Shown here: positions 11,721-38,054 of the stretch, in pieces
Layout: the number at the start of each line of letters is the position of its first letter
Position numbering within the stretch: position 1 is the stretch's first letter
Source of the DNA: a virus
Taxonomy: Duplodnaviria; Caudoviricetes
IMG/VR virus record: IMGVR_UViG_3300005323_000042
Coordinates: 1-64,000 of that record
Length of the DNA: 64,000 nucleotides
Reading direction: 5' to 3' (one strand)
Translations under genes and position numbers: made by a program
The notes under the pieces: model-generated
What the model was told of the DNA's origin: nothing
Seen by the model: the letters and a program-made list of their open reading frames with translations, nothing else
Database searches by the model: none

Positions 11721-14180
11721 TTATTTGTTCCATTTACTTGGAAACTGATTTTCAATCTCTTCAAGTATTATCTGTGCATACGAAGAAACGCCGCCAGTTG
11801 GAAAACCTTCTGTCTCAACGTCGTTTAATGATGAAAGTATAACCGGGGACATTCTGAGAATTATATCGCGCTTACATACACTGTATGATATTTTGTTTTC
11901 GTATGACAGGGGAATATTGGTTATAATTGTGTTGTCATATACCGTAAACTGATTTTTGCCGGACTCAAACAAATCCTGTCTGTTTACATATTCGAAGTCA
12001 GTGATATCTATTGAGCTGACAAGAAGATATTCATTGTAATTAATTTTTAACTGTACCTTCTGAACACCGTCAACGGCAAGATATTTTATAGTGCGTTTAT
12101 TTGTACTGTCCAGTAAAGATCTTGCAGGATAATTGAGAATACTATTGTCAGCTATTAATGTTACTGTAAAACCATTTTCTTCAAACCATGTCTTGACATG
12201 GTTAAGAGTTGCAAGTTCGAATAAACCGATAGTTGATTCTATATCATCAAATTTCAGTGTCAGTCTTGATGTAGAGATTCTTATTTCATATTGTGAATCA
12301 CGTTTGATATGAAATACATCTTCGACTTTCAGACCACTCTCGACAGTAATGGCATTAATGAGCCCGTTTCTCGTCGAATCAAAACGGTTACCGAAACAAT
12401 ATTTCAGCCGCTTTATATAATCATGATTTTTTTCACCGGTAAACCGCGGTAAGGAGTGGATAGCACCAATCTGATCAAGTTCATTCAACGCATTAAAAGC
12501 ATTCGGAACCACACTACTGCCGCCGTTGATTCTTATGGCATTATATTTTTCAGCAAATATAATCAGACCGGTATTGCTGTCGGTGATATAAGTATCGTTT
12601 CTGAATATTGTTTTTATTTTATTAAGTCCAACATTAATACAAAGCAAACCGTCGTGATCAAAATACATCTGACCGGCAGAACAATCTTCAGACAACGGCA
12701 ACTGGAATAAAGGGTATTTGCGCTGGCTGTCAACTATGAATGTATCTGTTTCAATCGATTCACCATTTATAAGAAGATCAAGTCTTACAATAAAATCCTG
12801 GTCAAATAACTCATTTTCCAGTGCATATTCTATTATCGGAGTGTAAAAACCGTAAGTATTTTTTAATGTATAATCTGTCCAGTAATTATTGTCGCTGAAA
12901 TTGCGCCAGTCATTATTTTTTGTTTCAGAATCACCATGATTATTATTTGCAACACTCGGCTCATGACAGTACAGGATACTGCCGTCTGTCTTCATAATAA
13001 TGAAACGATACTTGCTGATAAACTTATTCGTCTGTATACGATTGTATTCGCCTGTAATGGTAATCTTACCGGCATCAATCATAACATCGAGATTGACAAG
13101 TGGATCAGGAGTGCGTAGTTCCGTCGTCAGTTTTGCCAATGGCGAATATGTTTGCCATTTATTATAGGCAATCAGATAATTATCCGTTAATACATACAGT
13201 AAATTTTTATCAGCAGCAGGAAGAAAAGAATCGATATCAGTTAATTTTATAAAATCATTTTCAGTATCATCAAAAACCATTAAATCACTATGAGTAGAAA
13301 TTTCAATGTCTTTTACACCGGAATAATAATCGAGTATATCTTTAGATGTATATTCTTTCTGAAGTAGACGTTTGTTGTCTATGTCCCATTGCCAAAATAT
13401 AGATTTTGTTATGCCATCGTTATTCTGCAAGGAATAGGAATCATCTCCCTGCATCTGCGTCTTAGCAACTGTTCCGGTTGTAATCGTAAGAGAGAATTTT
13501 GCCGGCAGATCAAATGCTTCTGTCTCAAGTTTATCAATCTTTCTCCAGGGGATACTGCTCCTTACAAATCCCGGAAGATAAAATATCAGATCTTCTTTCT
13601 GTTGTATTCCATATATATCAATACCACTGATTATAATATGTGTACCGGCAATATCTTCACCAATACTGTTATTAATAAATACAGTGTCACTGTCGGCATC
13701 AAGTTTCAGACATATAGTGCATGGTTCAATAAACAACTTGTCAAGAATAATTGTTTTATTTAATGGAGAATTCTGTAACAGGTATTCCTGGTCAAGTGTT
13801 ACGTTTTCAATAATATTGATACCGGTAGGAAGAGAATTATACCACCAACTTTCATAGTCGTTATGGCTGCTGGCACTTACTGGAATCCATGTTGATCCGT
13901 CATAATATTCAACCGAATTTACATTCGTCGGTTTGGCGACAGTATAACATACGTCTATTGTGTCAAGGAGAAATGTTGACGGAAATCTGTTTTTGGAATG
14001 CCTGTATAAAACATATCCTAACTGATCGATCTGTGATGAAAATCCATTGAGTAGTTGCTGGTATACTGAATATTTGTAGTTTCTGCCAAGTTGATATTTC
14101 GATAACTGATTGGCAGCTATTTTTGTTGTCGGACTATAAAGATAGTCCTGTCTGGTCTCTATATATTTCGAAATTGCCAT
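11721..14180 (-). CDS. Baseplate wedge-type protein (819 aa)
   Basis: Directly downstream of baseplate J; contains LDQIGAIHSLPRFTGEKNHDYIKRL, the wedge-type LD.G...L.R...E....Y..RL motif. Confidence 0.6.
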   Translation of the reverse strand: MAISKYIETRQDYLYSPTTKIAANQLSKYQLGRNYKYSVYQQLLNGFSSQIDQLGYVLYRHSKNRFPSTFLLDTIDVCYTVAKPTNVNSVEYYDGSTWIPVSASSHNDYESWWYNSLPTGINIIENVTLDQEYLLQNSPLNKTIILDKLFIEPCTICLKLDADSDTVFINNSIGEDIAGTHIIISGIDIYGIQQKEDLIFYLPGFVRSSIPWRKIDKLETEAFDLPAKFSLTITTGTVAKTQMQGDDSYSLQNNDGITKSIFWQWDIDNKRLLQKEYTSKDILDYYSGVKDIEISTHSDLMVFDDTENDFIKLTDIDSFLPAADKNLLYVLTDNYLIAYNKWQTYSPLAKLTTELRTPDPLVNLDVMIDAGKITITGEYNRIQTNKFISKYRFIIMKTDGSILYCHEPSVANNNHGDSETKNNDWRNFSDNNYWTDYTLKNTYGFYTPIIEYALENELFDQDFIVRLDLLINGESIETDTFIVDSQRKYPLFQLPLSEDCSAGQMYFDHDGLLCINVGLNKIKTIFRNDTYITDSNTGLIIFAEKYNAIRINGGSSVVPNAFNALNELDQIGAIHSLPRFTGEKNHDYIKRLKYCFGNRFDSTRNGLINAITVESGLKVEDVFHIKRDSQYEIRISTSRLTLKFDDIESTIGLFELATLNHVKTWFEENGFTVTLIADNSILNYPARSLLDSTNKRTIKYLAVDGVQKVQLKINYNEYLLVSSIDITDFEYVNRQDLFESGKNQFTVYDNTIITNIPLSYENKISYSVCKRDIILRMSPVILSSLNDVETEGFPTGGVSSYAQIILEEIENQFPSKWNK

Positions 14181-15352
14181 TAATTAAACTGAACTCCATT
14201 GATATCTGATATAATAAGTTTACAGAAAACAGAAGGAGTATAATCTGTAATGACTTCTTCCTTTATGGAATAATCCAAAACAGGTTTATATATATATGCG
14301 GCAATGTCTATACTTTTAATCTTTGAGTGTAATCCTGTAAGAACTGTAAGAAGATCTTCAACATAATAAGGTTCCTCTATATCAAGATTATTAACATAGT
14401 CTGCAGTATTAGCTGTAATTAAAGATTCCGCAAGGACAATATCATCGTCTGTTGTACCTGATTTATAGGTTACTGTGAAAACAAAAACCATCTTAATATA
14501 TGTTGGGGCCATTGCGGTTACTTTGCTGCCGGCAGCTTTTATATTATTTATTGCTGCCTGAACTTCATCAAGCAACCCACTTGATACTACAGGAGTAGTT
14601 GATTTTATTATTACTCTAGCTGTACCGATACCCGCGTATTTGTCGGTGATAAGTACATCTGCAACGCCGGGCACATTAAAACAGGCAAGGCGGATTGCAG
14701 TTTCATTGGCTGCGGCTCCATGTAGTTTTGCATTAATAATCCTATATCTGAAATTATCATCAGTTTCTTCATCACTTCCATTATCGATAGAATCGACATT
14801 GGTTACAAATAAACTATAACTGGCGGTTGGAGAGTAATTGCTGAACTCAAAAAATCTTAAAGTGCCCGCTTGAACATTTGATGATGATCCTGACGAAACA
14901 GCCTTTACATTTACATATGCAGATGTGTCATTTTTTGGTAGAGTACTGTCAGCAATAACTGAATAATATATTTTATCTTCGCCTCTTTGCGCCCATACAC
15001 GCGTACCAGTTGGTATAACAATATCAACATTATTATTTATTGCACCAAAACTTGATGCATTCGTATAAAATTTCACTGCAGAAGAGTGAGATGATGCCAC
15101 TGTCGCGGCTATTCTTTCAAGACCGAAAATATCTCCGAGATAATCGAGATACTTTCCATATGCCCCATATATAAATCCAACCACAGTATTATAATCAAAG
15201 ACAGTATAAGCCTCTGATAACTGGTTTTTAAAGATTTCCAAAAGCGTTCTGAACTTTGAACCAGGACCGGTAGAGTTAATGACAGTGTTTGACTGCATGT
15301 AATCGATAGATTCTGATATTATCTGATTTGGATCTTTTGCAAACAAGGCCAT
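14180..15352 (-). CDS. Baseplate J-like wedge protein (390 aa)
   Basis: YLDYLGDIFGLER, IPTGTRV, VNVKAVSSGSSSNV, NGSDEETDDNFRYRI motifs of the gpJ/gp6 family. Confidence 0.9.
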   Translation of the reverse strand: MALFAKDPNQIISESIDYMQSNTVINSTGPGSKFRTLLEIFKNQLSEAYTVFDYNTVVGFIYGAYGKYLDYLGDIFGLERIAATVASSHSSAVKFYTNASSFGAINNNVDIVIPTGTRVWAQRGEDKIYYSVIADSTLPKNDTSAYVNVKAVSSGSSSNVQAGTLRFFEFSNYSPTASYSLFVTNVDSIDNGSDEETDDNFRYRIINAKLHGAAANETAIRLACFNVPGVADVLITDKYAGIGTARVIIKSTTPVVSSGLLDEVQAAINNIKAAGSKVTAMAPTYIKMVFVFTVTYKSGTTDDDIVLAESLITANTADYVNNLDIEEPYYVEDLLTVLTGLHSKIKSIDIAAYIYKPVLDYSIKEEVITDYTPSVFCKLIISDINGVQFN

Positions 15353-16654: not shown

Positions 16655-19600
16655 TTACGTTTCGAAAAGTTCTTTGATTGCACTGCCAAATACAGTTGTG
16701 AAGTTATTAAACCCATCATTGAATACTTTAAATTCATTTTCAACCCACTGAATCAATCCGCCAGTTTTATAAGTATTCATTCCCATAATAAAAGGAACAC
16801 CATGTCTGATGACTGGCTGCAGATAAATCGGCTCACGGTTCTTTGCAAGTTGTAATACCTTTGAAGCCAATTGCATCCATAAAATACTTGTTGCAGCTAC
16901 GACAGCAATACCACCTATAGAGAGGGGAGCTGCCGCGGTAAATACAGAACCCAATCCGGTTAAAAGATGAGCGGCACTTGCGGCACTTGCTGTATAACCG
17001 GCAACCGGAAGGATCCCGCCTACAGAACGTTCCAGCAGATCCTGACCCCTATCCCCGGCAAACATTGACATTAAAGCATCAAGATTGGTCATACTTACAA
17101 GGTCACTTACAGTTGAAACCATAGACGGTTCAACACTTGAAATAAAACCTTCACTCGGGGTCATTGAAATAATATGTGTTCTTACTTCGACTGGACCGTA
17201 TGTGTCTGTCTGATCGTCTGAAATAATCATATAATCGTACGGTTTCATCGATGGTTCGCCAAGGGTATCAATCTGTCCTTTATAAAGTTTTTTAGACTGT
17301 CTCCATAGTTCAGCTGCACCGTAGCGGTATGCACCCGTTAGACCGCCCTCATTAATACAATTAGGAAACTCAATACTTGTAGTCCTGATATCTTCTTCCT
17401 GCAGAAAATCGTTCATTTTACATTCTACAACACTGGCAAACCATGCTCCCGATGACCAGTCTTTTCTTTCGTCTTTATCATCTTTGCTATTTGTAGAATA
17501 ACTTACAGCAATATTTGTATAGACATCACGGTAATCAGCGCGCATGTTGTTACTGATAAGATTCGTTTCTGATGTGACTTGAAAATAATTTCTGAAACTA
17601 CGAAGTGTATTTAATCTTGGAGTTTCTGCGGCTTCCACTATCTCTTCAGCTCTTAATAATTTATCTCTGTTTGTATTGTATTTCTGCAAATTATTCACTG
17701 CCATACTGCTGAAAGTATTGCTAATACTATTTAAAGGAGAATACAGATTCAAACTGTAATCGGTTGCCTGCGCAAGATATTGATATCCATTTTTAGCATA
17801 ATCAGTATATGCTTCAACTATACGTCTTGCGGCTTCTACCTTTGGGTTGTTAAGCGACTCACGCAACTTGAACATTTCATTCGCAGTTACCGACCGGCAG
17901 AAATAAGGACTATCTGGAGGACCAAAGAATAGTGTATTTCTCATATCAAACGGAAGTACTTTTGCAACATATCCAGGATACCTGTATGTCATTTCCTGAA
18001 TCATATCCCAGCATGTCAGTCTGTATATCATATAAGTCAGATTCACTCCATTGTATATTTCACCCAATGGATTTTTGATAAACGACCAGATAGTGCTTAA
18101 GGGACTTTCAACAAGTTTATTTAATTCTGTATATATGCCTTCAAGGTTTGATTCATTCGGGGCCATAATATTAAGATCACCCTCGTTCTTTGCCCATGTC
18201 CAGACTAATTGTTTTCTTCCATCAGGTCGTATCTTTGAATAATAACCAAGGAGATTCACACCGGAAGTACCTTCGCTGAATTGCAGGTTGGATGCATTAT
18301 TAAGTTTCCATCTGCCGAAATGCATTATCTCCGGTTGTGTAATACACCAGTTTATTATTTCTTTTGTCTCTGCATTAAGAGTTGTTATATCATCGGGTTC
18401 CTCTTTCATCTTGATATCGTAAACAAGTTCAGCACCAAAACTCTGACAAATCATTTCAAACTCATGATTATGCCCATCGATTGCTGTTACTTGGCCATTG
18501 AACACGGTATTCAGTTCGTTAATATTATTACTATAACCCATACGGCACTGTATTGTCGTACCTTCTTGTAGCATGATGCCACGTAACGGATTTTCAAGTT
18601 CAGTATCGCGTACGACAGTATCTTTATTCTCTGTGTTCGGTGTAGGCTTATACCGTGCAGAAGTAAATTTTCCGGTCAGATCTATAAACCTTATTGTAAT
18701 TACATCAATAGGCTGATCGCTATGTTGTACCAGTCTGATTTCCTGTATTGCATTAAGACCAAACATTTCATTGAGATCCTGTTGCCGTAACGGATAAAGC
18801 TTTTCGGTTGTATCTTCTTCGATAATATAGATTTTATAAACAGGAAAACATCTTGTCATGTCGAACATTCGTTCAACAGAGGAATTTGCAGCAGCTCTGC
18901 GTTTAAACAGAGTTGAGACAAAAGTGTCATCTTCAGAATATGAAAGATAGTTTTCCGACTGACCATTTTTAAACATCTGTACGTTTATGGAATTCTCAAT
19001 TCGTCTATCACTACTGTCCGCAAGATTGGGATATATATTATTGACCTGAAATTTTTTATTCAGTGCCGTGGACTTATTTGCTACAGTCTGGGAAATTTCA
19101 TGTGTAAGATTATGTGCAGTCTTTGATGTATACGGTGTACTGCCATTGTTATCGACATAGAACTTCATAGAATCTACACTACTGTCGTTGCCGATAAGTG
19201 CTTTGATTATGTTGTCGTTATTGGTAGAATAACTATATGTACTTAACTGTTTTGTATACTGCTGAAAACGTTCAACTATTTTTTCTACTTCTTTTTTATG
19301 GCGTAGTTCTTTTTTCTGATTGCTATAGGAGTCAAAATATTTACGTGGCTGATAAAAATAATAATCCGGAGTAATTGTCGGAGGCAACTGAAAATCCATA
19401 TATGCCGACTGTTTGATCGTTCCGATCTCAGCTTTGATTTCTGCAGGATATAATTTCTGAATAGACGGAAAATATTTATAAAGTATTTCTGAATATTTTG
19501 AAACCCATAATTTCAAAACTTCATACAATTGCATACCTGTTTTATTATCGTTGATTACTTTCTGCACATCGGCATTAAGATGTATGTTTATTCCATAAAC

Positions 19601-22246
19601 GTCTTTCTGACCAGATTTCCAGTATATATCAGAAATATTCTCGAGTTCATCAATCAGTTTCAGGATACAATCTTTTACCTGTAACTCTTTTGCTTCTTCT
19701 ACGTCGGTATGAGTATTTGTATTTGTAGCGCAGGTGCTGTCCTTGTATTTATTAGCAATCCACCGTACAGTTTTATAATTATCATCAAGAGCAGATGCAA
19801 CTTCACCGCGTATGGCATTGGCAGCCTCTGAAAGATGTATTGCATAACTCGGTGTACCGATACTTGTGCCATCTGTTGATGGTGGGGTGACTGTATTTGT
19901 AAGTTTACGGTCTTCAAGCCAGGCTGAAATTTTAAATGAAGACTTGCTAAAAACGAGTTGCAACAGGTCTTTATAATATCCTTCTATGGTTAAGTTTTCC
20001 TGTCCAAATCCGAAGGCTTCGTTCATCTTTTCACGTACCTGTGTAAAATCGGTCATTGCAATACTTACCAAAGAAGCACCTGGAATTTCGGGACTTGTTT
20101 GAATGTTTACGTTATCGACAATAAATCTATTGCCACCCTGAACAACATTTATATAACCATGCTTGATGCCAAGTCCGTCAACAGACGCTACTTCTCCGAA
20201 TCTTATCGTATTATCAGATATAATATTGAGTATCTGTTGAAGCTTTATAAGTTGCGCATCGCCTGCCTCTCCATTAATACTTATATTCATATTGACTTTT
20301 TCGACATGTCCTCCAAGCCATTGATGTGTTGCATATTTATAACCTGACAATGGTATCCGCGGAATTTCGTTATAACCGACATTACTCAAATATGCAATCT
20401 GAAAATTCGTATTTGTCTTTAAGTCAACGGTCCATTTATGTGCAATACGTACATAAATAGTATCTGTATATACATTGGGCCTCAGTATATCAAAACTACC
20501 GGCGGGGAGTGAATTTAAAAAATTCTGCACTTCCTTTGTTTTCTTTGATTCAGTATCATTTAATACGACAACAGTTTCAGTCATCTTCTCTTTTGACACT
20601 GCAGAAACATTTACTTCCGGCAAAACATTTGGATTCGCAACATTGATATTATCATTGTCCGGAATGCCCATATTATAACCTTTGTAATAGGTAGTAGATT
20701 TTTTACTGGTTGCTGTTTGTTCTTCTTTCTGAGTCTTGACAATTTCTTCAAGTTCTTTTCTTGACTTGGCTGCTGTTTGGTAAGATGTGGTGTCAAAGAT
20801 ATATTTTTCGGGATCCTGTCTCGTACCATGATATATTACTTCATAGTGCAGATGTATGCCGGTTGAATCGCCTGTACTTCCGGTATTGCCTATATTCTGT
20901 CCTTTAACAACCTTCTGTCCGGAATTTACAGCAAAGGAAGACATATGTGCATAGAATGTCTTATAACCTGATCCATGGTCGATCTCAATACAGTTGCCGT
21001 AACCTCTTCTGGAACCAACAAAAGAAATGATTCCCGCAGCTGCAGCCGATATAACTTTCGGACTTCCGGTTGCAATATCTATTCCTGTATGCATTTTATA
21101 TGTCTTGTGTATAGGATGTAGTCTCATGCCGAATTTACTAGTTATCTTTCCACTTACAGGTTTAATGGAAGGGGTAGTATCAAGACTGTCTGCTATAATA
21201 ACTTCATCAATAGCTCCTTTTGGAGTGTTTGCCATGAAATCTTTTACAATTACTTTTGAAGTCTGGTCCGCAGTCAGATACTTTAATTTTAATTCGAGAT
21301 ATGTAAAATACTGGAATTCAATACTATTATTATTAAGATCATGATTGTATTCGTTTAATACAAAACCATTATCGGATATACGTCTTTCAAGTGTCTTATA
21401 TTCTTTTGCAAAGAACTCATAGAAGGCTTTGCTTTTACCTGTAGTAAATACAGCCGATGACGGACTGAATATTTTTCCGTTGACGGCATTCGGATGACGA
21501 AGTATAATTGTATTGTCACCATCTTTGCCTAAAGGACCACGTTTATAATCGCCGACAAAAACAACTCTATCCATAAACGGCAGGTAGTTAAACAACAAAA
21601 AATCAAATGTAACGCGTATGATTTCAGGAGATTCAGGATCTGTCTCCATCTGATGGGATTGATATGTAAGCATTATTTCAATGTCTTCGTTATCTTCAAT
21701 CTGATCTCCTGTCACTTCTATGGCGGCTGCAACGAGGCGTTTGCGCAAGTATTCATTTCTCACATGGCAGAAAGGCATTGTCCTTAATTGTGTAAGCAGT
21801 GGAATGAGTTTATAACGGATTTCATCACTTAGTGTAACCGGTTTATTTTTGATATTAACAAGAGGATTTGCAGTAAACAACAGCGAGATACGAACTGAAA
21901 TTTCTCCATGTCCGGTATCAAGTTTAACAGAATGCTTGCTTCTTATCTGTGGTATATCTATAGAGTTATTATTAATACTTACCGCAATGTCCTGTGGCGG
22001 TATTGTAAACCAGATATCATTTATTAACATTGCCCCCGGTTGACTGGAAGCTTTAGCCGCAAGTGTATTATTATATTTTTTGTAATTAGCCACAAAAGAA
22101 TCTGACCGAAGATAAGTCTGCAGGTCATTGTCAAATATTCCTTTCTCTGCATTTGACGTATATAAATATTTGCATACTTCCTTGTACCAGGTGTCTTCAA
22201 GTTGTAGAATAGATGAAGGAGCATTTTGTGATTTGGTAGTGGACAT
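16655..22246 (-). CDS. Giant baseplate hub-like protein with internal M23 (LytM) peptidoglycan endopeptidase (1863 aa)
   Basis: M23 motifs HTGIDIA, GYGNCIEIDH, TFYAHM, GSTGDSTGIHLHYEV at ~20800..21160; hub-type EGTTIQCRMGYSNNINELNTVFNGQVTAI at ~18480..18570. Confidence 0.8.
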   Translation of the reverse strand: MSTTKSQNAPSSILQLEDTWYKEVCKYLYTSNAEKGIFDNDLQTYLRSDSFVANYKKYNNTLAAKASSQPGAMLINDIWFTIPPQDIAVSINNNSIDIPQIRSKHSVKLDTGHGEISVRISLLFTANPLVNIKNKPVTLSDEIRYKLIPLLTQLRTMPFCHVRNEYLRKRLVAAAIEVTGDQIEDNEDIEIMLTYQSHQMETDPESPEIIRVTFDFLLFNYLPFMDRVVFVGDYKRGPLGKDGDNTIILRHPNAVNGKIFSPSSAVFTTGKSKAFYEFFAKEYKTLERRISDNGFVLNEYNHDLNNNSIEFQYFTYLELKLKYLTADQTSKVIVKDFMANTPKGAIDEVIIADSLDTTPSIKPVSGKITSKFGMRLHPIHKTYKMHTGIDIATGSPKVISAAAAGIISFVGSRRGYGNCIEIDHGSGYKTFYAHMSSFAVNSGQKVVKGQNIGNTGSTGDSTGIHLHYEVIYHGTRQDPEKYIFDTTSYQTAAKSRKELEEIVKTQKEEQTATSKKSTTYYKGYNMGIPDNDNINVANPNVLPEVNVSAVSKEKMTETVVVLNDTESKKTKEVQNFLNSLPAGSFDILRPNVYTDTIYVRIAHKWTVDLKTNTNFQIAYLSNVGYNEIPRIPLSGYKYATHQWLGGHVEKVNMNISINGEAGDAQLIKLQQILNIISDNTIRFGEVASVDGLGIKHGYINVVQGGNRFIVDNVNIQTSPEIPGASLVSIAMTDFTQVREKMNEAFGFGQENLTIEGYYKDLLQLVFSKSSFKISAWLEDRKLTNTVTPPSTDGTSIGTPSYAIHLSEAANAIRGEVASALDDNYKTVRWIANKYKDSTCATNTNTHTDVEEAKELQVKDCILKLIDELENISDIYWKSGQKDVYGINIHLNADVQKVINDNKTGMQLYEVLKLWVSKYSEILYKYFPSIQKLYPAEIKAEIGTIKQSAYMDFQLPPTITPDYYFYQPRKYFDSYSNQKKELRHKKEVEKIVERFQQYTKQLSTYSYSTNNDNIIKALIGNDSSVDSMKFYVDNNGSTPYTSKTAHNLTHEISQTVANKSTALNKKFQVNNIYPNLADSSDRRIENSINVQMFKNGQSENYLSYSEDDTFVSTLFKRRAAANSSVERMFDMTRCFPVYKIYIIEEDTTEKLYPLRQQDLNEMFGLNAIQEIRLVQHSDQPIDVITIRFIDLTGKFTSARYKPTPNTENKDTVVRDTELENPLRGIMLQEGTTIQCRMGYSNNINELNTVFNGQVTAIDGHNHEFEMICQSFGAELVYDIKMKEEPDDITTLNAETKEIINWCITQPEIMHFGRWKLNNASNLQFSEGTSGVNLLGYYSKIRPDGRKQLVWTWAKNEGDLNIMAPNESNLEGIYTELNKLVESPLSTIWSFIKNPLGEIYNGVNLTYMIYRLTCWDMIQEMTYRYPGYVAKVLPFDMRNTLFFGPPDSPYFCRSVTANEMFKLRESLNNPKVEAARRIVEAYTDYAKNGYQYLAQATDYSLNLYSPLNSISNTFSSMAVNNLQKYNTNRDKLLRAEEIVEAAETPRLNTLRSFRNYFQVTSETNLISNNMRADYRDVYTNIAVSYSTNSKDDKDERKDWSSGAWFASVVECKMNDFLQEEDIRTTSIEFPNCINEGGLTGAYRYGAAELWRQSKKLYKGQIDTLGEPSMKPYDYMIISDDQTDTYGPVEVRTHIISMTPSEGFISSVEPSMVSTVSDLVSMTNLDALMSMFAGDRGQDLLERSVGGILPVAGYTASAASAAHLLTGLGSVFTAAAPLSIGGIAVVAATSILWMQLASKVLQLAKNREPIYLQPVIRHGVPFIMGMNTYKTGGLIQWVENEFKVFNDGFNNFTTVFGSAIKELFET

Positions 22247-22264
22247 TATTTTTCTCCTGTGGTT

Positions 22265-25200
22265 TTATCTAGACCAGGAATTGTATTTCTCTTCTTTATT
22301 AAGATTATTGATATGTTCTTCATCGGCAGATTGGTTTCGGTTAATGAAAGTATTCTGATTAATAAATCCCATTTTACCTAACTGCATTCTGATTGTCTGT
22401 GCATTACTGGAAACCGGAACAGTACCACGTATACTGTGTTTGAAACCTGTGCCTCTCGGCTGATACACGGCGCCTGTTGGCGGATCAATTGCTTCTGCGC
22501 CCTGTGGAATCTGTTTTTGTGATTCTTCACGTACTTCCTGTTGCTGCATGGCATTATCTCTTGGTCGCAAGAGATAACCGGCAGCCAAAGCTCCACCCGC
22601 GATAAGTTGAAATGTTCTGTTCTTTAAAACCCTTGGAGCCGTCTCGGCAATCACATCACCAAGAGTATTGGATGTTCTGCGGAATGAATTGTCTACAGGC
22701 GTTATATCGTGCAGTGCGTTTACCTGGGCATTACTTATCGGTATAGACCCGATATCATTCATCCGCCCATGAATCCTGTTTACCTGATCGACATTATGAA
22801 CCTGTTTGGTAGCATATTTTAAATAATCTGCATAATCAATTTTGACTTTATCTCCGGACTTTAACCAGTTCTTAACATCATCTATCGTCGTAAAGTCATT
22901 GAATATATTACCTAATTTTCCATTGAATTCAACATCAAGGGCGCCACGTTCACCGGGAAGATGCTCGTTCATCTTTGCAGTGTACTGCATAAACTTTTCG
23001 GCCCTGTTCTCAAGCTTTCCTGAAGCAGAGTCAAAAACACTAAGATAGTCAGCTGCATCCACTTCGTTTGTGAAGAGTTTACCGCCGATAAACATTTCAG
23101 GAGTCGACACTGCCATATGGTCAAAAGCCCGTGCTTTTTCCCAGACTCCTATTCCGGTATTATCAAAAGCCTCTGCGAGTTTTGAATTGAAACGCATCGA
23201 ATATGGATATGTTTCATTATATCCTTTTGCAATGTTTCCGGACTCAGTAAAGGCAGATTCAATATAACTCGATATATTCTTGCTCATTCCTTTGACTGTT
23301 GACTTTTTGTTCAGGTATGTCTGTCTTATAAGTGGAACGGCAACAGAGTCGGATTCCTCGATCATCTTTGCGCGCAATGCTTCACTCTTTGGTGTCAGTC
23401 CAAGCACAGGATCAAAATCCTTGTCAAGCATTGCTTTAGACTGTACGGGATCACTTACATGTACGGTAAGATCGTCTATAGCCCCATGAACAATCGACCG
23501 AACATTTTCATCATATACACCGCCGCTTGTCATCATAAGATCTTTCATAAGCGCTTCTTCATCTATTGCCCTGGCAACAGTAACACCCTCTGTTCCGTAG
23601 GCGGGATGTCTTGTTACAACTTGTGGAATACCCTTACGCATAGCTGTCTCGCGCAACTCTGCGCCCTGCAACCCGCCTTTTTTAAGTTGTTCATACAATT
23701 CTGTCTGTTCAAGTATCTGTGTGAAATTCTTACTTGAGTATCCGGCAAGATCTTTATTCACAACACTGTCTATTGTAAGTCCATATCTGGAAAGTGTTTT
23801 CTGTACGGCGCCCGGAGAACCCTCCTTGGCTATAAGCGTTTCAAGAAGGCCCTTATCAAATACACCTCTGCCGCGATAAACTTTCATTGTCGCATCTGAC
23901 ATTGCAGAAGTTAAATTAACATGTTGACCAAGAACATTAACCCACGACTGCTTAAGGTCGTTATATAATTCTTGCTGACCATCCCATCCTTTGGAAGCGG
24001 CCATCAGATAATCACGCGTGGTTTTTGAAAGTAGTTTTCTTATTGGTTCATCCTGAGATGCAAAGCCTTTATTGCTTACAATGTTTGTCCAGTGAGATTC
24101 TGTTGTAGAGAGGGGAACATTATTGCCATTGATAGTGGTATAAAATGCGGCATTGTCAGGAATAGGTTTGTTTTTCCATTCAGTCATACCCTGAGCTATC
24201 TGCATCGCTCTGTTTCTTGCAACCTTTGTACTGGTTGATGTAAGTTCTTCAATTGTTTCTGTGCCGCTGATGTCCGCCCAATTAAGCTTAATATGTCGTC
24301 CCTCAATAGGCTTATTAAGAACCGGCATAAACTCATTGTATAATTCATGCATTACCTTCTTATTATAATTAAAATGACTACGCACGAAATCTGCAGCAGC
24401 ATTCTGTTTTGATACACTCAGTGTATTTTCCAGAATTGAGTTTACCTGCACTTTATTGGATGGATCAATACCCATCAGTATTGGACTCTTGTCGGTTGTA
24501 TAAATATCAGTATTTATACTTGCCATACCGCCTGTCTTCTGTTCGTCTTCACTTAGCAATCTCATATAAGGTGCAAGGGCAGGATTTTTTTCTGCAGATG
24601 CTAAAGTTTCAGCGTTGGTCAAAGACCGTATACGGTTAAAACTATCGCCACCTTTTCTTATGCCTTCCTTCAGAACCCTAAAATCACTATCAAGCATTGT
24701 ATTTAGTTCTTTATGGAATTCCGGTCTTACTGTTTTATGTTTGCTTATCATATTATCAAGCATTTCGGTTGCGCGGGCAGCTGCAACCTTGTTTTTGCTT
24801 GATGTTGTATTTATTAATTTTATTGCCGACTCTGCATTAATATCACCGGACTGTATTACATCTTCGAGCACCATTCTGGCAGTAACGAGTCTTCTCATAT
24901 GTTCCTGTCTTAACCGCATTGAATAGATTGATTTAACAGTGCCCCAGTTTTTACCAACCATCCCAACTTTACTTCTGAATGTAGTATCAAGTCTGATACC
25001 TTCGTTTGTCAAAGAAATATCGTTCAGCAATACCCTTCCTCGTCCGACCCGAACTTTGCCGGTAGTTGTTTCGAGAATAGTGCCATTATCAAACATATCC
25101 TTTAGCGCTATGCCATTCTTGAAACCTCTTGCATCCGAATACTGCTGAAGAATTTCCGGCATATTGCCCTGGCGTATCATGTATTTAAGTTTTTGTCCGC

Positions 25201-26548
25201 GTGTAGCATTTGCAGCAAGCGAAGCATGAGACTTGTTTCCCATCTTCTCATAGTAAAAATCGAACAGGTCATCGAAAAATGACACCGTCTTCTTCGGCAT
25301 TATAGCATCTTCCAGTTTTAGTGTTATCGGATGATTGCTTAATACTGTTTTACTTGCAAGTGATTTATTAATCCATACATCTTCTTTTCCAAGGTGTGGC
25401 ATTGCAACACCGCCAACATCATATCCGGAATCAGTCAGCGCATCAAAGATTGCATCGTTTGCGCTTAACCGCAGAGTAGGTACCGGAATGGCATTTGTAT
25501 TATTCAGGAGGTCCAGTGCGAATCTATTTGGAGCAGCGCCCTCTATTCTGGCAGATTTATTTAACATCTGGTGCAGGGCATGATTACCTTCTGCGACACT
25601 TATCTCTTTGGCAATACCAAGATCAAGATCAGGAATATTGAGCCTTGCGCTTGCAACCGCGTCAACTGATTTTAAAAATGTCGGGGAAGTTTTTCCTCCG
25701 TATGTTTCGAAATTTCTATTAAAGTTCTCAACATATCTTTTTCTTTCCCTGCTATTTTTCAGACCGTTTGGTATTACGGTATTCATATGTGCTTTGGTAA
25801 TATAACCGCTTGGAGTCATATCCGGTTCATGAAGAACATATTTGTTTATATCCATATTGAGTTTTTTAATCTCTTTTTTCTTCTGATATGTCTTCATTGG
25901 GGAACTGAGAATTTCATTTACTTTATATAGTTTATAAGTATTGAAATCCATCGCATTTGAACGTACGAAAGAAGTAATGTCGCCTGAAACTTCATTGTTT
26001 AATATTGCCCTGGTGGCATCTTCCGGCAGGAAGAACTGCGGTACATAATATTGATGACCGGCATTCGTAGATGCAATCCGGATAGCACCATTGTCAGAAA
26101 CAAAACCTAATGAGATACCATGTTTTTTCTTTCCGGTGTGCATAACAATTTCTTTGGCGCCATTCTCATATATTTTCACACCAAAGTGAAACTCATTATT
26201 TGTTAAGGACTGAGTATATTCAATAACATTCTGAAAACTTTTATTACCCGCCTCACCATATATTAATTGATTCAGTTTTTTTACATCTGTAACTTTTAAA
26301 TACTGACCATCAATAACGGCATCTGCAAAACCAACATCTGCTATATTGGACATCTGCGTTGCAAGACTCTCATCAGGCACAAGAGGTGTATCTATCCAAC
26401 TTTTATGACTGGACCCCATCCTGTCTTTGCGTCCTTTAATATCCTGATAGGTACGGTACAATTCCTTGGCGGCTATACCGCCGGCCCCGATCATTCCGAG
26501 AAGACCTATATTAGCGCCTATTGATGATGTGTATTGGGATTCTGACAT
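22265..26548 (-). CDS. Putative virion-associated single-subunit two-barrel RNA polymerase (1427 aa)
   Basis: Motifs in beta-then-beta' order: VAMPHLGKEDVWINKSL (E389/D390), GKNWGTVKS (K533/K539), YRGRGVF (R894), VVTRHP (R980/P982), LDKDFDPVLGL (D1042/D1044/D1046); located in the tail module next to the tape-measure-like gene. Confidence 0.7.
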   Translation of the reverse strand: MSESQYTSSIGANIGLLGMIGAGGIAAKELYRTYQDIKGRKDRMGSSHKSWIDTPLVPDESLATQMSNIADVGFADAVIDGQYLKVTDVKKLNQLIYGEAGNKSFQNVIEYTQSLTNNEFHFGVKIYENGAKEIVMHTGKKKHGISLGFVSDNGAIRIASTNAGHQYYVPQFFLPEDATRAILNNEVSGDITSFVRSNAMDFNTYKLYKVNEILSSPMKTYQKKKEIKKLNMDINKYVLHEPDMTPSGYITKAHMNTVIPNGLKNSRERKRYVENFNRNFETYGGKTSPTFLKSVDAVASARLNIPDLDLGIAKEISVAEGNHALHQMLNKSARIEGAAPNRFALDLLNNTNAIPVPTLRLSANDAIFDALTDSGYDVGGVAMPHLGKEDVWINKSLASKTVLSNHPITLKLEDAIMPKKTVSFFDDLFDFYYEKMGNKSHASLAANATRGQKLKYMIRQGNMPEILQQYSDARGFKNGIALKDMFDNGTILETTTGKVRVGRGRVLLNDISLTNEGIRLDTTFRSKVGMVGKNWGTVKSIYSMRLRQEHMRRLVTARMVLEDVIQSGDINAESAIKLINTTSSKNKVAAARATEMLDNMISKHKTVRPEFHKELNTMLDSDFRVLKEGIRKGGDSFNRIRSLTNAETLASAEKNPALAPYMRLLSEDEQKTGGMASINTDIYTTDKSPILMGIDPSNKVQVNSILENTLSVSKQNAAADFVRSHFNYNKKVMHELYNEFMPVLNKPIEGRHIKLNWADISGTETIEELTSTSTKVARNRAMQIAQGMTEWKNKPIPDNAAFYTTINGNNVPLSTTESHWTNIVSNKGFASQDEPIRKLLSKTTRDYLMAASKGWDGQQELYNDLKQSWVNVLGQHVNLTSAMSDATMKVYRGRGVFDKGLLETLIAKEGSPGAVQKTLSRYGLTIDSVVNKDLAGYSSKNFTQILEQTELYEQLKKGGLQGAELRETAMRKGIPQVVTRHPAYGTEGVTVARAIDEEALMKDLMMTSGGVYDENVRSIVHGAIDDLTVHVSDPVQSKAMLDKDFDPVLGLTPKSEALRAKMIEESDSVAVPLIRQTYLNKKSTVKGMSKNISSYIESAFTESGNIAKGYNETYPYSMRFNSKLAEAFDNTGIGVWEKARAFDHMAVSTPEMFIGGKLFTNEVDAADYLSVFDSASGKLENRAEKFMQYTAKMNEHLPGERGALDVEFNGKLGNIFNDFTTIDDVKNWLKSGDKVKIDYADYLKYATKQVHNVDQVNRIHGRMNDIGSIPISNAQVNALHDITPVDNSFRRTSNTLGDVIAETAPRVLKNRTFQLIAGGALAAGYLLRPRDNAMQQQEVREESQKQIPQGAEAIDPPTGAVYQPRGTGFKHSIRGTVPVSSNAQTIRMQLGKMGFINQNTFINRNQSADEEHINNLNKEEKYNSWSR

Positions 26549-26577: not shown

Positions 26578-26606
26578 GTAAAATTGCTGTGAAGTAAGTG
26601 AGTGTG

Positions 26607-26627
26607 CCCGGCGAAAGCCGGGTTTTT
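26607..26627 (+). terminator. Plus-strand (antisense) intrinsic terminator-like hairpin
   Basis: CCCGGC-GAAA-GCCGGG followed by TTTTT on the plus strand, between two minus-strand genes. Confidence 0.55.
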
Positions 26628-26628
26628 A

Positions 26629-29600
26629 TTAATAGTGAAACAATCCCATATCGCGCATTTTCTCGCGTATATCTTTCTTATTATTTTGCTTACCTTGAAA
26701 GTCTATAACAGAAGATCCTCTTATGGGAGTAGAAATTATCCTGGCATCATGCATACCAAGGTTTGTAAGATAATTCTGTATATCATTTTTCGAAGTTATT
26801 GAACTGGAACTGGGAACAGGTGTTGGCATATCTCCGTAAAGATCTGTCGTTGCGTCGAGTATTTGTGCCTGCCGTTCGTCTTGCCGCCAGAGATCAAAGT
26901 CACGAATATTCTTGCCAAGATTATTGGCTACCTTAACTTTGAAAGCATTGAGATTAACGTCGGGAGCGTAACCTATAAAATTTCTATCAGGTACATTATT
27001 TCCGAGTACAACCGGTTCCGTAGTAGTTTGAACAGGCGCCATATTGCTTTCTAATTGTTTTGCAACATCCAGATCATGCATTGTCATTGCATCACTGTGT
27101 GCCCAGTGGGCATTTAACACCTGTGCTGTCTGAGGATTAATTGTTTGTAATATCTGACTGCGTTTATCAGTTTCTGTTTCGCCTGCAAAAGCAGCGAAGA
27201 ATCTTTGTTCTCTTTTTGGAAGCAGACCAATTGCATTGGATATATTGGCCAACGGGTTAGAACCCTCAAGTGCCGCACGCTTACCGGACCTGTAATATGC
27301 CGCGGCTTCAAACTCGCCTTGCTCGGATGCGACATTGGCTTTTTCCTCAAGTAGTCTGTTTTTCGCAAATTGCATTGCCGAAAAGTAACTGTCCAGTTCC
27401 GCATTTTCTGCAGTTTCCTTTGGAATAAAATTACCAAAGGTAAGGATGTTCATTGTTTTATTGATGGCAGGTTTAATAAAATCCTTGTAAGGATGTTCCC
27501 ATGATTTAAATGATTTGTCGAGCAATACCATAGATTTATATTCTGTCATAGGATCTACCGGACCTGAAAACTTGTGCATAGGTGCAATTGGATAGAGAGA
27601 TTCTGTCGGAAGCATTCTGCCTGCTTTCTTTACGGCAAGCCAATAAGCACCGAGTGGACCGCTGCCGGTATCGAATCTTGTATCATTTTTTACTTCCTCT
27701 TCTCTGCGTAAGGTTTCCTGGTAGAGATTCACACCGGCCTGATTAAGCTGGTTATTTATTATCTGACTTTCAACTGCGTTTCTGAACATATGATATTCAG
27801 CAGAATACGGGGCAACATCGGAAAGAATCTGCATTTTATGTACAGCAGGGTAGTCGTCTGGATTCAATCCGCTCAGGTAAGGATACAAAGTTTCATAACC
27901 TCTACCAGGCAATCTCAATTCACCATTTTCAATAATCGAGAAAGGGTCACCGTACTTAAGATCTTCACGTCCTATCCATTCGGGCATTTTGTTTCTGATA
28001 GCTGCATGAACATATTCGGTATCATAATCTCTGTCTGGGTTTAATCTTCTATACCATTCGTTTAATCCGGCCAGATCTCCAACGTTCTGATCCCAATAAG
28101 AACGTTGTGCAGACATGATTCTACCGGAAGATTCATAACGCATGGAAGGAATTATGAACGATTGTCCACTAGCCATCGTATCTTTGACAGACCTTAATGC
28201 AAAACCCTGTAAGCCAAAGGTATCAGTCAATGATTTGCCAAGTTCAGATGCATAGCCCTGAACAGTTGACGGGGAAGTAATCGTCGGATAAATTCCCTTT
28301 GTACTTATTGCATCGATTCCATTTATAGATTCCGGTATATCCGCTGTAATCTGTGGCTCCTGTGCCGGATGTAATTTGCCGGCTGTCTCCGGATGTGCAA
28401 GAACAGTTGGCTTCAATACCTGCTTTAAAGGACTGAATAGTTTTTCGGGTAACCCTGCACCATAGTCTGTTGGCCCCCAGTAAGCATAAGGCCGTTCCTC
28501 ATCAAGCGCACGTTCCATATAATATGGATCAAACAATCTTTTTATAAAACGCTTAACAGGTTTATTATAATATTCTTCAGGCATGATGCCTTTTTCACGG
28601 GCGTCAGTTTTTGCCCGGACAGTCCAATGCGGTTGATAATAATCTATTTCTCCGCCTTCAAACGGAGTATTACCCATAGTCCAGAACCGTCCTCTGCGGA
28701 CAGGTATCCATTCTTCACCATGATAAATTTTATTAAGTTCTTCGGGCGTCTTATTGGATCCAAGGGAACCAAGCAAGAATGGAGTAATGACAGCAGCGCC
28801 AATTGCAGCACCGGTCATGGCGAACGCGCCAACACGACCTTTGCCGGTAAGATTAGCAAGACGTGCCGCTTTGCCGGAGATACCACCTAAACTTTCTGCC
28901 TTATAAGCAAAATCAAAGAACCATTTTGGTGCGGCCATTTTTCCATTCAATGGCGCCCTGCCGACATTAGACAGTCCTGCAATAGTACCGCCTGCAATAG
29001 CGCCGGTCAGTAGCACCGCAAGAAGCCCCGTAAACTTATGTGTACCAGGAGCTTTCTCTTCCTGGTATTTATTCAGAGCAGTAAGTCCTGTTTTCTCAGA
29101 GACATGGGAATATAATTTTGTTACATCCTGGTAAGCCTGTGCGGCTATACCTTTTGCATCAGTACCAAGGACTGATTTTAATACTGCATTACTTATTTTC
29201 CATGCAGCTATACCGGCAATGATTTTTGGGAATCCATGTGTAATATGGCGTTTCCATAATCTTGCTGTATTACCACGAAGATAATTTGCACCACCTACAC
29301 CAAGCTGGTCGCGAAAATATTTATTGTATAACGATCCGACTTTCTTAAATGTTCTTCCACCAAGACCCTGGTCAGCTTCAAGTGCCCGGTACCACTTGGT
29401 CTTTGACAGGTTGCCGAATAACTCCATAGGGTTATCAAGCAAGCGCATATAATTTTGTGTTGCAACAGTTGTCCATGCAGAAGCGGTTTCGCCGAATGCC
29501 CGAAGTTTTGATGTACCACCGGTTATTACAAAATCACTGTCAGGAATATGCAGATTATATTGTTCATATAATGCTTTGGTAAACCTCGACATTCTGTTTC

Positions 29601-30135
29601 CGGGACCGGTTTTGCCCGGGACGACTTTTGCATATTTGAGCAATATATCGTCAATTCCGGATTGGTTCTGATAAAGGAGTTTGCCATTCTGAAAACGCAT
29701 TCTGCCGGATTGCAGATGCGCATTAGTAATTTTTCCACCGGAAATCTGCTTTAAGTAATCGCCTTGTTTGGTAAGCCACTCTGGTTTCAGATTGATGGCA
29801 AGATTAGAATAAACCCTGGCGCCGTATATACTCGATGCAGAAAATGCGCGCGGCATTTTGAATAACTGTTCTTCGGCAACAGCCATTGCATTCCATATCA
29901 GATCTCTTACAGTTGCAGTCTTTGCGGTACGGTATGTGTGCCAAACGTCGCCGTTGATAGTAAACTTATCTGCATACCGGAGTTTTGTAATATCTATCTT
30001 TGTTGGAATCTTACCAAGAACATAATTCAAACCAACAACAGCAGCACCCTTCCAGGCCATAGATATGGTTGTCTCGAAGGGTGACTTTTTGTAAGACTCG
30101 TTCTGTGAAGAATATGTGGCGTTTTTAAGATTCAA
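26629..30135 (-). CDS. Tape-measure-like / DNA-ejection protein (1168 aa, TTG start)
   Basis: Directly follows a tail chaperone; Ala/Gly-rich helical protein with hydrophobic segments (FTGLLAVLLTGAIAGGTIAGL; AFAMTGAAIGAAVITPFLLG). Confidence 0.6.
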   Translation of the reverse strand: MNLKNATYSSQNESYKKSPFETTISMAWKGAAVVGLNYVLGKIPTKIDITKLRYADKFTINGDVWHTYRTAKTATVRDLIWNAMAVAEEQLFKMPRAFSASSIYGARVYSNLAINLKPEWLTKQGDYLKQISGGKITNAHLQSGRMRFQNGKLLYQNQSGIDDILLKYAKVVPGKTGPGNRMSRFTKALYEQYNLHIPDSDFVITGGTSKLRAFGETASAWTTVATQNYMRLLDNPMELFGNLSKTKWYRALEADQGLGGRTFKKVGSLYNKYFRDQLGVGGANYLRGNTARLWKRHITHGFPKIIAGIAAWKISNAVLKSVLGTDAKGIAAQAYQDVTKLYSHVSEKTGLTALNKYQEEKAPGTHKFTGLLAVLLTGAIAGGTIAGLSNVGRAPLNGKMAAPKWFFDFAYKAESLGGISGKAARLANLTGKGRVGAFAMTGAAIGAAVITPFLLGSLGSNKTPEELNKIYHGEEWIPVRRGRFWTMGNTPFEGGEIDYYQPHWTVRAKTDAREKGIMPEEYYNKPVKRFIKRLFDPYYMERALDEERPYAYWGPTDYGAGLPEKLFSPLKQVLKPTVLAHPETAGKLHPAQEPQITADIPESINGIDAISTKGIYPTITSPSTVQGYASELGKSLTDTFGLQGFALRSVKDTMASGQSFIIPSMRYESSGRIMSAQRSYWDQNVGDLAGLNEWYRRLNPDRDYDTEYVHAAIRNKMPEWIGREDLKYGDPFSIIENGELRLPGRGYETLYPYLSGLNPDDYPAVHKMQILSDVAPYSAEYHMFRNAVESQIINNQLNQAGVNLYQETLRREEEVKNDTRFDTGSGPLGAYWLAVKKAGRMLPTESLYPIAPMHKFSGPVDPMTEYKSMVLLDKSFKSWEHPYKDFIKPAINKTMNILTFGNFIPKETAENAELDSYFSAMQFAKNRLLEEKANVASEQGEFEAAAYYRSGKRAALEGSNPLANISNAIGLLPKREQRFFAAFAGETETDKRSQILQTINPQTAQVLNAHWAHSDAMTMHDLDVAKQLESNMAPVQTTTEPVVLGNNVPDRNFIGYAPDVNLNAFKVKVANNLGKNIRDFDLWRQDERQAQILDATTDLYGDMPTPVPSSSSITSKNDIQNYLTNLGMHDARIISTPIRGSSVIDFQGKQNNKKDIREKMRDMGLFHY

Positions 30136-37385: not shown

Positions 37386-38054
37386 TTAAATTAGTACCTT
37401 TGCTATGAATTCATAACCGACAGATACGGGTGCCGCCGATGACTCTCTTGTCGTTTGCTGTGTGCGTATGAATGCATCTATAAATACCTTCTCTTCATAA
37501 TCTGTCGAATCGGCATAACTGCCGATTCTGAAATCGCGTATTTTTATTTGTAACGGACCTATAAATTCCGGATGAACAGGAGTGCCTTCGTCGGGACATT
37601 TCCAATATGTGTTCTTTAATGTCTTAATCGTTTCTGCATCAACTTCCTGTGCATACAGAAGTGTTTCCATATTATTGTAACTTGTTGAGAAATCTGTCAG
37701 GGGTTGAAAGTATTCGCCGGTCGCGTTTGGCAAATTTGTTTCGTTAGGCAGATGTACTCTTGTTGAACTAAGAGCTTCTTCAACAGTCTTGTCCTCTGAA
37801 TTCTTTTGTTCTTTTGCTTTATTAATGTGGGCAAGGATATAACCATTGTTTGTGTAATTAACTGTAAATGTGCCATTGGCTATTGCTTTGCCCATAATAA
37901 CAGTATCAAAATGATAACTCTTATATCCATATATCGGTATTTGTCCCGCAGTATATATTCCCATAATAGATGTCACTTCTGCAAGCGGCATATCGTTTAT
38001 GTATATAACTGCTTGCGATCCGGTAAAGTACTGTGTTGTAAGTCTTGAACTCAT
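37386..38054 (-). CDS. Tube-fold protein 3 (tube initiator-like, 222 aa)
   Basis: YFTGSQAVIYIND...IPIYGY...GKAIANGTFTVN is homologous to the major tube. Confidence 0.7.
   Translation of the reverse strand: MSSRLTTQYFTGSQAVIYINDMPLAEVTSIMGIYTAGQIPIYGYKSYHFDTVIMGKAIANGTFTVNYTNNGYILAHINKAKEQKNSEDKTVEEALSSTRVHLPNETNLPNATGEYFQPLTDFSTSYNNMETLLYAQEVDAETIKTLKNTYWKCPDEGTPVHPEFIGPLQIKIRDFRIGSYADSTDYEEKVFIDAFIRTQQTTRESSAAPVSVGYEFIAKVLI

Follow-up and report, generated by a model that had tools for sequence, protein, structure and literature searches.

A candidate single-chain two-barrel RNA polymerase in the tape-measure slot of a contractile-tailed phage

Gene B, its family and its conserved residues

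The window analysed here is a 64,000-nucleotide (nt) stretch, positions 1 to 64,000 of the IMG/VR record IMGVR_UViG_3300005323_000042 (Caudoviricetes), and consists of late phage genes in one strand-biased block, on the minus strand. One gene of this block, gene B, is a single open reading frame (ORF) at 22265-26548 with an ATG start, and its product of 1427 amino acids (aa) contains zero cysteines. A reading made from the sequence alone, hereafter the sequence-only reading, had proposed that gene B encodes a cryptic single-chain two-barrel RNA polymerase (RNAP) in the tail module. The follow-up upholds this proposal, in that the catalytic residues are conserved among homologs and the predicted structure retrieves RNAP subunits and single-chain two-barrel RNAPs; the two-barrel RNAP reading of gene B is well supported. 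The features of the gene are as follows.

22265..26548, minus strand: gene B, single-chain two-barrel RNAP candidate in the tape-measure slot (ORF, 11 homologs of 1390-1541 aa, AlphaFold2 (AF2) models and fold searches)
26468..26521, minus strand: N-terminal Gly/Ala-rich hydrophobic helix, aa 10-27 (Kyte-Doolittle 1.5-1.6), with an equivalent in 12/12 family members and in ME3_36 of Acinetobacter phage ME3
24911..25489, minus strand: beta-type barrel region, about aa 354-546, with a helical insert
25382..25384, minus strand: E389, acidic residue of the beta-type barrel, in a G-x-E-G motif
24932..24952, minus strand: K533-x-W-G-x-x-K539, candidate active-site lysine pair
23327..23896, minus strand: beta'-type double-psi beta-barrel (DPBB), aa 885-1074
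23603..23611, minus strand: R980-H-P982, equivalent of the beta' NRxP motif
23411..23425, minus strand: D1042-K-D1044-F-D1046, candidate metal-binding Asp triad
23201..23275, minus strand: candidate bridge helix, aa 1092-1116 (25 residues), an AF2 helix at model residues 763-787
23078..23104, minus strand: candidate trigger-loop base, L-P-E-x-x-I-G-x-K block, aa 1149-1157, with two short helices in the model
22565..22615, minus strand: C-terminal hydrophobic helix, aa 1312-1328, present in 12/12 members and in ME3_36, gp095 of Bacillus phage WH1 and gp034 of phage KLEB27-3
22268..22564, minus strand: conserved C-terminal module, QEVREES... to ...YNxWN, the region richest in invariant columns

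The hydrophobic Gly-rich segments of the protein are strong at aa 9-27 and weaker at aa 1312-1328; the helices that the sequence-only reading quoted lie in them, at aa 14-27 and 1315-1327. All peptides quoted in the sequence-only reading were found at the residues and nucleotides it had assigned to them, among them VAMPHLGKEDVW... (aa 381-400), QVVTRHPAYG (aa 976-985) and DKDFD (aa 1042-1046). Judged from the gene B sequence alone, the motifs are within chance expectation: a DxDxD appears in 22.6% of shuffles of the protein, and the pattern [RK]xPx{20,100}DxDxD, the filter of Chaban et al. 2024 for calling viral two-barrel RNAPs (PMC10770324), in 6.4%. It is the homologs that carry the case.

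An exhaustive HMMER scan of 1.84 billion cluster representatives with aa 150-1349 as the query recovered 10 relatives of 1390-1541 aa (E 4.5e-109 to 1.6e-07, 23-35% identity). Scanning IMG/VR with the alignment as seed gave two loci, one already known and one a new relative (L014); the IMG/VR scan seeded with the single protein gave no relatives. Together the 11 relatives show 19-31% identity. Two metagenome scans brought no additional members, from which we take the family to be rare. No match to the gene B protein was found by tblastn among 50,697 GenBank phage records or in the ESM Atlas, and a word-indexed protein search with the whole protein, the alignment or the C-terminal region returned only the query itself. 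Seven loci from a metagenome pattern search were set aside, all being judged chance matches by tblastn.

The core alignment comprises 12 sequences over aa 330-1300 (971 columns), and across this core the identity to the gene B protein is 18-27%. Invariant columns number only 13 of the 971, and they take in 6 of the 10 residues that had been named beforehand from the single sequence (hypergeometric P = 3e-10). K533, R980, P982, D1042, D1044 and D1046 are identical in 12/12 members, while K539 is conserved in 11/12; the two lysines sit in a G-K-x-W-G-x-x-K motif in which W535 is conserved in at least 90%. All seven residues are invariant in an 11-sequence full-length alignment (columns outside the termini). 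The check that the sequence-only reading had set for itself, conservation of the Asp triad in homologs, thus came out in its favour, and the same is true of R-x-P and the Lys pair. Its acidic pair E389-D390 fared unevenly: position 389 is acidic in 12/12 (E in 10, D in 2), while D390 is not conserved (Gly in 10/12, Ala in one). Two further pairings with the E. coli enzyme find no support in conservation, as R894 in KVYRGRGVF is conserved in 1/12 only and INTDIYTT, set against VDIVLNP, falls in a variable region.

Eleven of the 12 members have no DxDxD other than the motif at the DKDFD position, and the family loop consensus is D-(L/K/W/E/N/Q)-D-x-D. Each of the 12 carries one R-x-P...DxDxD signature with a spacing of 53-72 residues, and two have an additional, nearer K-x-P before the same Asp triad. 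The helix at aa 1092-1116 and the LPExxIGxK block both come after the beta'-type barrel, inside the ranges aligned to beta'; these candidate bridge-helix and trigger-loop elements contain the invariant residues I1106, Y1116, E1151 and I1154, and P1150, G1155 and K1157 are each present in 10/12. The terminal hydrophobic helices and the C-terminal module, with invariant Q1337, R1340, E1341, V1361, G1375, G1394, I1402, N1423 and W1425, are the best-conserved non-catalytic parts of the protein, and their conservation suggests roles in assembly or membrane insertion.

Predicted structure of the core

AF2 was run template-free on the 12-sequence alignment of aa 330-1300. The core model has a mean predicted local distance difference test score (pLDDT) of 76.8 and a predicted template-modelling score (pTM) of 0.75; within model residues 556-745 the block pLDDT is mostly 73-94, falling to ~60 at the R-x-P loop. 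The Asp triad is located inside the modelled barrel (model residues 713-717). Foldseek against the PDB returned no match at E <= 1e-3 for the core model, and its best 50 matches, with E values of 4.5e-3 to 5e-2, were all RNAP largest subunits, comprising bacterial beta', the Pol II and Pol III largest subunits and the non-virion RNAP (nvRNAP) of AR9. Fold matches of the core model were DPBB domains, RNAP beta', P23-45 gp96, P74-26 gp62 and QDE-1, with multisubunit beta' scoring equal to or above the clade resembling RNA-dependent RNA polymerases (RdRPs).

When the N-terminal half was folded alone (aa 335-705, pLDDT 77.7), ~40 of its 50 best Foldseek matches were RNAP beta subunits, and the top 7 matches of a second aligner were all RNAP second-largest subunits. 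The two independently folded constructs gave the same topology, and the DPBB superpositions have a root-mean-square deviation of ~2 Å over ~90 residues. Individual Z scores are only middling; the structural weight rests on specificity, because with both aligners the two halves each pick out their own type of RNAP subunit. The sequence-only reading had called for two barrels, and the predicted structure contains them, a beta-type region followed by a beta'-type DPBB, with RNAPs retrieved from both the PDB and BFVD. In these models the conserved residues appear to fall where a two-barrel RNAP fold would need them.

Four significant matches to the gene B model were obtained with Foldseek in BFVD. 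The best is an unnamed 1258-residue piece (E 1.9e-10), which by its fit in length is presumably the second half of WH1 gp095. The others are the second half of the 1603-aa ME3 protein A0A172Q021 (ME3_36, E 4.3e-08), a 'minor tail protein' of the uncultured siphovirus ctnpt50 (A0A8S5SD80_1, E 6.7e-08) and an uncharacterised protein of Microcystis phage MaMV-DC (A0A075BUT7_2, E 9.3e-07). Lower matches include annotated DNA-directed RNAPs of nudi-, pitho-, mimi- and poxviruses, and giant proteins of crAss-like phages. The predicted similarity to the ctnpt50 and MaMV-DC proteins hints at tail-associated RNAP-like proteins beyond the lineage of gene B.

The tape-measure slot and its occupants

The late block around gene B contains the following genes.

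54878-56854: terminase
49563-51341: portal
45130-46386: major head protein
39663-41864, minus strand: tail sheath (phrog_16991, E 3e-52)
38980-39639 and 38054-38860, minus strand: two tube-like genes (phrog_9206, labelled 'major head protein')
26629..30135, minus strand: gene A, directly upstream of gene B, encoding a conserved 1168-aa virion-protein homolog (tblastn to ME3_35 and 0305phi8-36 gp145)
16655..22246, minus strand: gene C, 18 nt downstream of gene B, encoding a 1863-aa baseplate-hub-like protein with an M23 peptidase (Pfam M23, E 2e-29)
14180-15352: Baseplate_J-type wedge

As a sheath gene is present, the tail is contractile. The 'major head protein' label on the tube-like genes looks like a propagated mis-annotation, because the RefSeq record of Bacillus phage 0305phi8-36 names its tail tube and tube paralog likewise. 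The gene order is identical in each of the eight relative contigs that have full flanks: sheath (~700-730 aa), tube, about four small genes, A (~1165-1195 aa, longer with an intein), B, C (1755-2125 aa) and about three small genes, after which Baseplate_J follows in 6/8. The C protein carries an M23, SLT or lysozyme domain in 7/8 of these contigs. The same order is also found in the annotated records of the cultured phages 0305phi8-36, ME3, WH1 and KLEB27-3. By tblastn, protein A matches ME3 gp35 (E 6e-47, 88% coverage) as well as 0305phi8-36 gp145, and protein C matches the 'baseplate hub' ME3 gp37 and 0305phi8-36 gp147.

In the 0305phi8-36 record gp145 and gp146 are virion proteins by mass spectrometry; Hardies et al. 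assigned gp146 as the putative tape measure, and gp147, which holds a T4 gp27 domain, as a hub of the T4 gp27 type (PMC2147016). Gene B is syntenic with orf146, which lies between the chaperones and gp145 on one side and the gp27-like hub on the other, and so occupies the tape-measure slot of a contractile tail. Gene C, with its M23 domain, was ruled out as the tape measure, its homologs being gp27-type hubs. The sequence-only reading had foreseen that such a protein would be annotated as hypothetical or tape measure, and the occupants of this slot in cultured phages (slot-mates) are indeed labelled 'hypothetical tape measure protein' in 0305phi8-36 and 'hypothetical protein' in ME3.

Genes B and C are tightly coupled. 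Their spacer is 18 nt (22247-22264), with a strong AGGAG before C, while B is preceded by an A-rich leader only; in relatives the B-C junction varies between an overlap of 16 nt and a gap of 3 nt (L004:14185-14200 among them). The 80-nt spacer between A and B holds a GC-rich 7-bp stem with a GAAA loop (26606-26623) directly after the A stop codon. Its T-run lies on the plus strand only, which makes it unlike a canonical terminator of the coding (minus) strand. Protein A is far better conserved than B, with 77 invariant residues in a set of 10 sequences that includes ME3_35 and a mean column identity of 56% in a set of 7, and has no match in Pfam, NCBIfam or PDB profiles. Two independent inteins were seen in relatives of A (L004:4801-9495 and L009:5401-9987), each with a Cys start and an HN end followed by S/T; a 397-aa intein bears a LAGLIDADG domain. 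Their insertion sites differ and are both highly conserved, lying after residue 747 (LRLPGRGY | xALHPEL) and after residue 488 (RRGRFWEFG | TSPFEG) of protein A in the window.

Among the slot-mates, ME3_36 (1603 aa, 'hypothetical protein', L022:13173-17984, plus strand) has a single R-E-P...DHDQD and hydrophobic helices at both termini like gene B. WH1 gp095 (2515 aa, 'virion structural protein', L024:10593-18140, minus strand) and KLEB27-3 gp034 (2434 aa, 'structural protein', L025:7004-14308, plus strand) carry the canonical motifs NRYPT...ADHDGD and NRYPT...ADYDGD, respectively, and none of the three is annotated as a polymerase. A search of the cultured-phage slot-mates with the family hidden Markov model (hmmsearch) gave nothing significant, and tblastn gave no match. 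With hhalign, the family aligned weakly to WH1 gp095 and KLEB27-3 gp034 (probability 22%, E 1e-3): the R-x-P was set on NRYPT and the C-terminal helix and module were aligned, while the Asp loops stayed unaligned because their spacing differs. The C-terminal module alone gave a weak alignment to the C-termini of the Bacillus-phage slot-mates (probability 15%, E 0.0018). The gp146 protein aligns poorly with the WH1 and KLEB27-3 proteins across their motif region, and may have lost or replaced a polymerase core. In Moorella phage MTATph1 (L026:6513-10442, 12928-13869) an inserted transposase gene apparently interrupts the gene in slot B, and the 313-aa piece downstream retains the C-terminal module common to WH1 and KLEB27-3.

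A second polymerase candidate lies ~4.9 kb past the window on the opposite strand. Language-model and structure comparisons place this 876-aa ORF, which has a DCDGD motif (L002:4916-7546, plus strand; genome 68916-71546), nearest to clusters named RNA-dependent RNA polymerase (scores 0.95-0.97, TM 0.43), and PF05183 is found in 46% of one neighbour cluster in the ESM Atlas. The ORF has no match in Pfam, PHROGs, NCBIfam, PDB or GenBank phages, nor in two partial IMG/VR relatives, and an hhalign comparison with the gene B family overlaid the DxDxD motifs insignificantly (E 0.72). The phage 0305phi8-36 has an RdRP-family polymerase, orf99, outside its structural region (PMC2147016), and by its predicted similarities the 876-aa ORF is probably a non-virion RNAP of the YonO/QDE-1 type like orf99. 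A relay from a virion to a non-virion RNAP has been demonstrated for Thermus phage P23-45 (PMC10770324); that gene B and the 876-aa ORF might fit such a relay is offered as a lead only.

Interpretation and comparison with known systems

Taken with the predicted structures, these data make it probable that gene B encodes an active, highly diverged single-chain two-barrel DNA-dependent RNAP that belongs to the tail module and would be packaged there and ejected through the tube. Within the core, the N-terminal half (about aa 350-550) would form the beta-type barrel and supply K533 and K539; the C-terminal half (aa 885-1074) would form the beta'-type barrel, with R980/P982 and the Mg-binding triad D1042/D1044/D1046; an element like the bridge helix and one like the trigger loop would come after it. 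The gene sits in the late tail operon of a contractile-tailed phage of the 0305phi8-36/ME3 lineage, and the gene position, the annotation of the slot-mates and the precedent of P23-45 point to packaging and injection of the protein. On the same grounds, which also underlie our view of its template, timing and ejection, it may be assembled into the tail along with A and the hub C, exit via the tube at contraction and be held at the membrane channel by its hydrophobic helices. It could then transcribe the first-entering (pre-early) genes independently of the host RNAP, and one pre-early target might be the separate RdRP/YonO-like 876-aa polymerase candidate, mirroring the P23-45 relay.

Several observations weigh against this reading. 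No sequence-profile method ties the protein to any RNAP family: Pfam gave no match for the whole protein or five fragments at E 10, PHROGs and NCBIfam gave none, phmmer and a profile search against PDB sequences gave chance matches only, and PF00623 found nothing in the 81-kb genome when searched in six frames. The curated RNAP models, among them PF00623, PF00562 and PF05183, have no significant match even at E 10 on fragments, and the DxDGD loop of the RdRP/YonO/QDE-1 clade (PF05183) is absent, with Gly at the fourth position in 0/12 members. A missing curated match weighs little against membership, because the literature calls it usual in divergent viral members. The AF2 models are built on only 12 sequences, the sequence links to the Bacillus-phage slot-mates are weak (hhalign probability 15-22%), and the best-studied slot-mate, gp146 (L023:14624-22237, plus strand), has no DxDxD. 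The catalytic loop is D-h-D-x-D without the usual Gly, which nevertheless falls inside known variation, since active or accepted enzymes with the loops DNDKD, DDDKD, DFDID and DQDPD were tabulated by Chaban et al. 2024 (PMC10770324). Finally, a folded core of ~110 kDa should not fit the tail-tube lumen; the protein would need either to be kept in an unfolded or extended state, the one proposed for tape measures, or to be housed at another place in the baseplate or neck.

The shallow alignment, the modest PDB scores and the missing family profile match are also what would be expected if the RNAP-like fold were a modelling artefact and the D-x-D-x-D, K and R-x-P motifs belonged to another enzyme or metal-binding module; DxDxD occurs in calcium-binding and phosphatase motifs too. 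We consider this very improbable, given that two separately folded constructs agree in topology, that two aligners pair the C-terminal half with beta' and the N-terminal half with beta, that the barrels superimpose as closely as they do and that motif order and spacing agree with the published RNAP signature. A genuine fold might still be a dead one, namely a tape measure or ejection protein whose two-barrel core was exapted and whose acidic loop binds a metal or partner structurally. The slot is the tape-measure slot (PMC2147016), gp146 fills it without any DxDxD and may illustrate such a fate, the loop lacks its canonical Gly, and E-D (389-390), R894 and other RNAP motifs are not conserved. 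However, dead enzymes normally lose their catalytic residues, and here three Asp, the R-x-P and two Lys account for roughly half of the small number of invariant positions in a family at 18-27% identity; phage RNAPs recorded as active include some with the non-canonical loops DNDKD, DDDKD and DFDID, and aa 330-1300 are modelled mostly as a globular alpha/beta two-barrel fold and not as a long helical ruler. A catalytically dead core thus seems unlikely.

There is likewise only a small chance, in our view, that gene B is an active two-barrel RNAP without being a virion component, co-expressed late for an intracellular role such as late transcription or priming. All the fold and motif evidence would apply equally to such an enzyme, and the misfit between folded core and tube lumen would even favour it. 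Against it, the gene stands in the tail operon between the homolog of a virion protein verified by mass spectrometry and the hub in every relative with enough flank, and its slot-mates are annotated as virion or structural proteins. The conserved terminal hydrophobic helices are typical of ejected or tape-measure proteins, a late-made polymerase would be of little use unless carried to the next cell, and a separate non-structural RNAP candidate, the 876-aa ORF, is already present.

Beyond gene B itself, the packaged-RNAP reading can be extended, tentatively and with somewhat more doubt than confidence, to a wider picture in which tape-measure-slot RNAPs are old and widespread in the large myoviruses of the 0305phi8-36/ME3 type, some siphoviruses and Microcystis phages. 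Such enzymes would be stored in or at the contractile tail, expelled through the tube with A and C, and then act as a membrane-anchored ejectosome linking the entry of the genome to pre-early transcription that is independent of the host. On this view the protein labelled 'tape measure' in such phages would be an enzyme, and a different protein, for example A, may determine tail length.

The Weinheimer-Aylward lineage of RNAP-encoding Caudovirales was set aside as a home for gene B, which matches no RNAP profile; the beta/beta' genes of that lineage are reportedly detected by standard searches. The virion RNAP gp66 of the crAss-like phage phi14:2 belongs to a podovirus-like virion and not to a tail tape-measure slot, YonO of Bacillus SPbeta is a non-virion enzyme, and gene B has no match to PF05183, the family of the RdRP-like clade in which these two are grouped with Neurospora QDE-1. 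The multisubunit virion and non-virion RNAPs of the jumbo phages phiKZ and AR9 are likewise myovirus enzymes that free the phage from the host RNAP, the loops of their nvRNAPs are non-canonical (DNDKD, DDDKD), and their nvRNAP subunits are among the best structural matches of both halves of gene B (7s00_d, 7s00_C, 7ogp_A, 7ogp_C). Unlike gene B, the phiKZ and AR9 enzymes are divided among 4-5 polypeptides whose identity is evident from sequence; they are packaged in the phage head, and their genes lie outside the tail module. Much closer in position are 0305phi8-36 gp146, ME3_36, WH1 gp095 and KLEB27-3 gp034, which fill the same slot between A and C homologs and have the C-terminal hydrophobic helix and tail module in common with gene B, although they are longer (1603-2537 aa compared with about 1400-1540 aa in the gene B family) and any similarity in sequence stays at noise level. 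The open-access literature that was searched, including a jumbo-phage survey and the 0305phi8-36 papers, contains no description of RNAPs in a myovirus tape-measure slot; an earlier description elsewhere is possible.

The closest known system is gp96 of P23-45, with its homolog in P74-26, a virion RNAP fused to the tail tape measure protein, whose activity and virion location were shown by Chaban et al. 2024 (PMC10770324), and which the gene B candidate resembles in being encoded in the tape-measure slot of the tail module. So far a tape-measure-associated two-barrel virion RNAP is known from one Thermus siphovirus group only (PMC10770324), and gene B differs from it in several respects. P23-45 is a siphovirus with an 800-nm non-contractile tail, whereas the phage of gene B has a contractile one. 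While gp96 is a single 5002-aa polypeptide with the RNAP at its N-terminus, gene B encodes a separate protein of 1.4 kaa with hydrophobic helices at both ends; there is no covalent fusion of RNAP and ruler, and the M23 domain is found in the next gene, C. The loop chemistry is also different, DKDFD/DLDxD in the gene B family compared with DFDGD in gp96, and the two proteins have no detectable sequence similarity, gene B giving no match to the 5002-position tape measure PHROG.

Virion RNAPs allow the phage programme to start without the host enzyme, and account for early transcription that resists rifampicin and for resistance to host shut-down. A second family, with no sequence relation to the first, in the corresponding slot of contractile phages would make the association of RNAP and tape measure a recurrent solution and not a thermophile curiosity, and would raise the structural question of how a polymerase core of ~110 kDa is stored in, and passes through, a contractile tail. 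It would add a deeply diverged branch for reconstructing the evolution of two-barrel polymerases. It would also relabel giant 'hypothetical', 'tape measure' and 'structural' proteins in the cultured Acinetobacter phage ME3, Bacillus phage WH1 and KLEB27-3, where the idea is directly testable.

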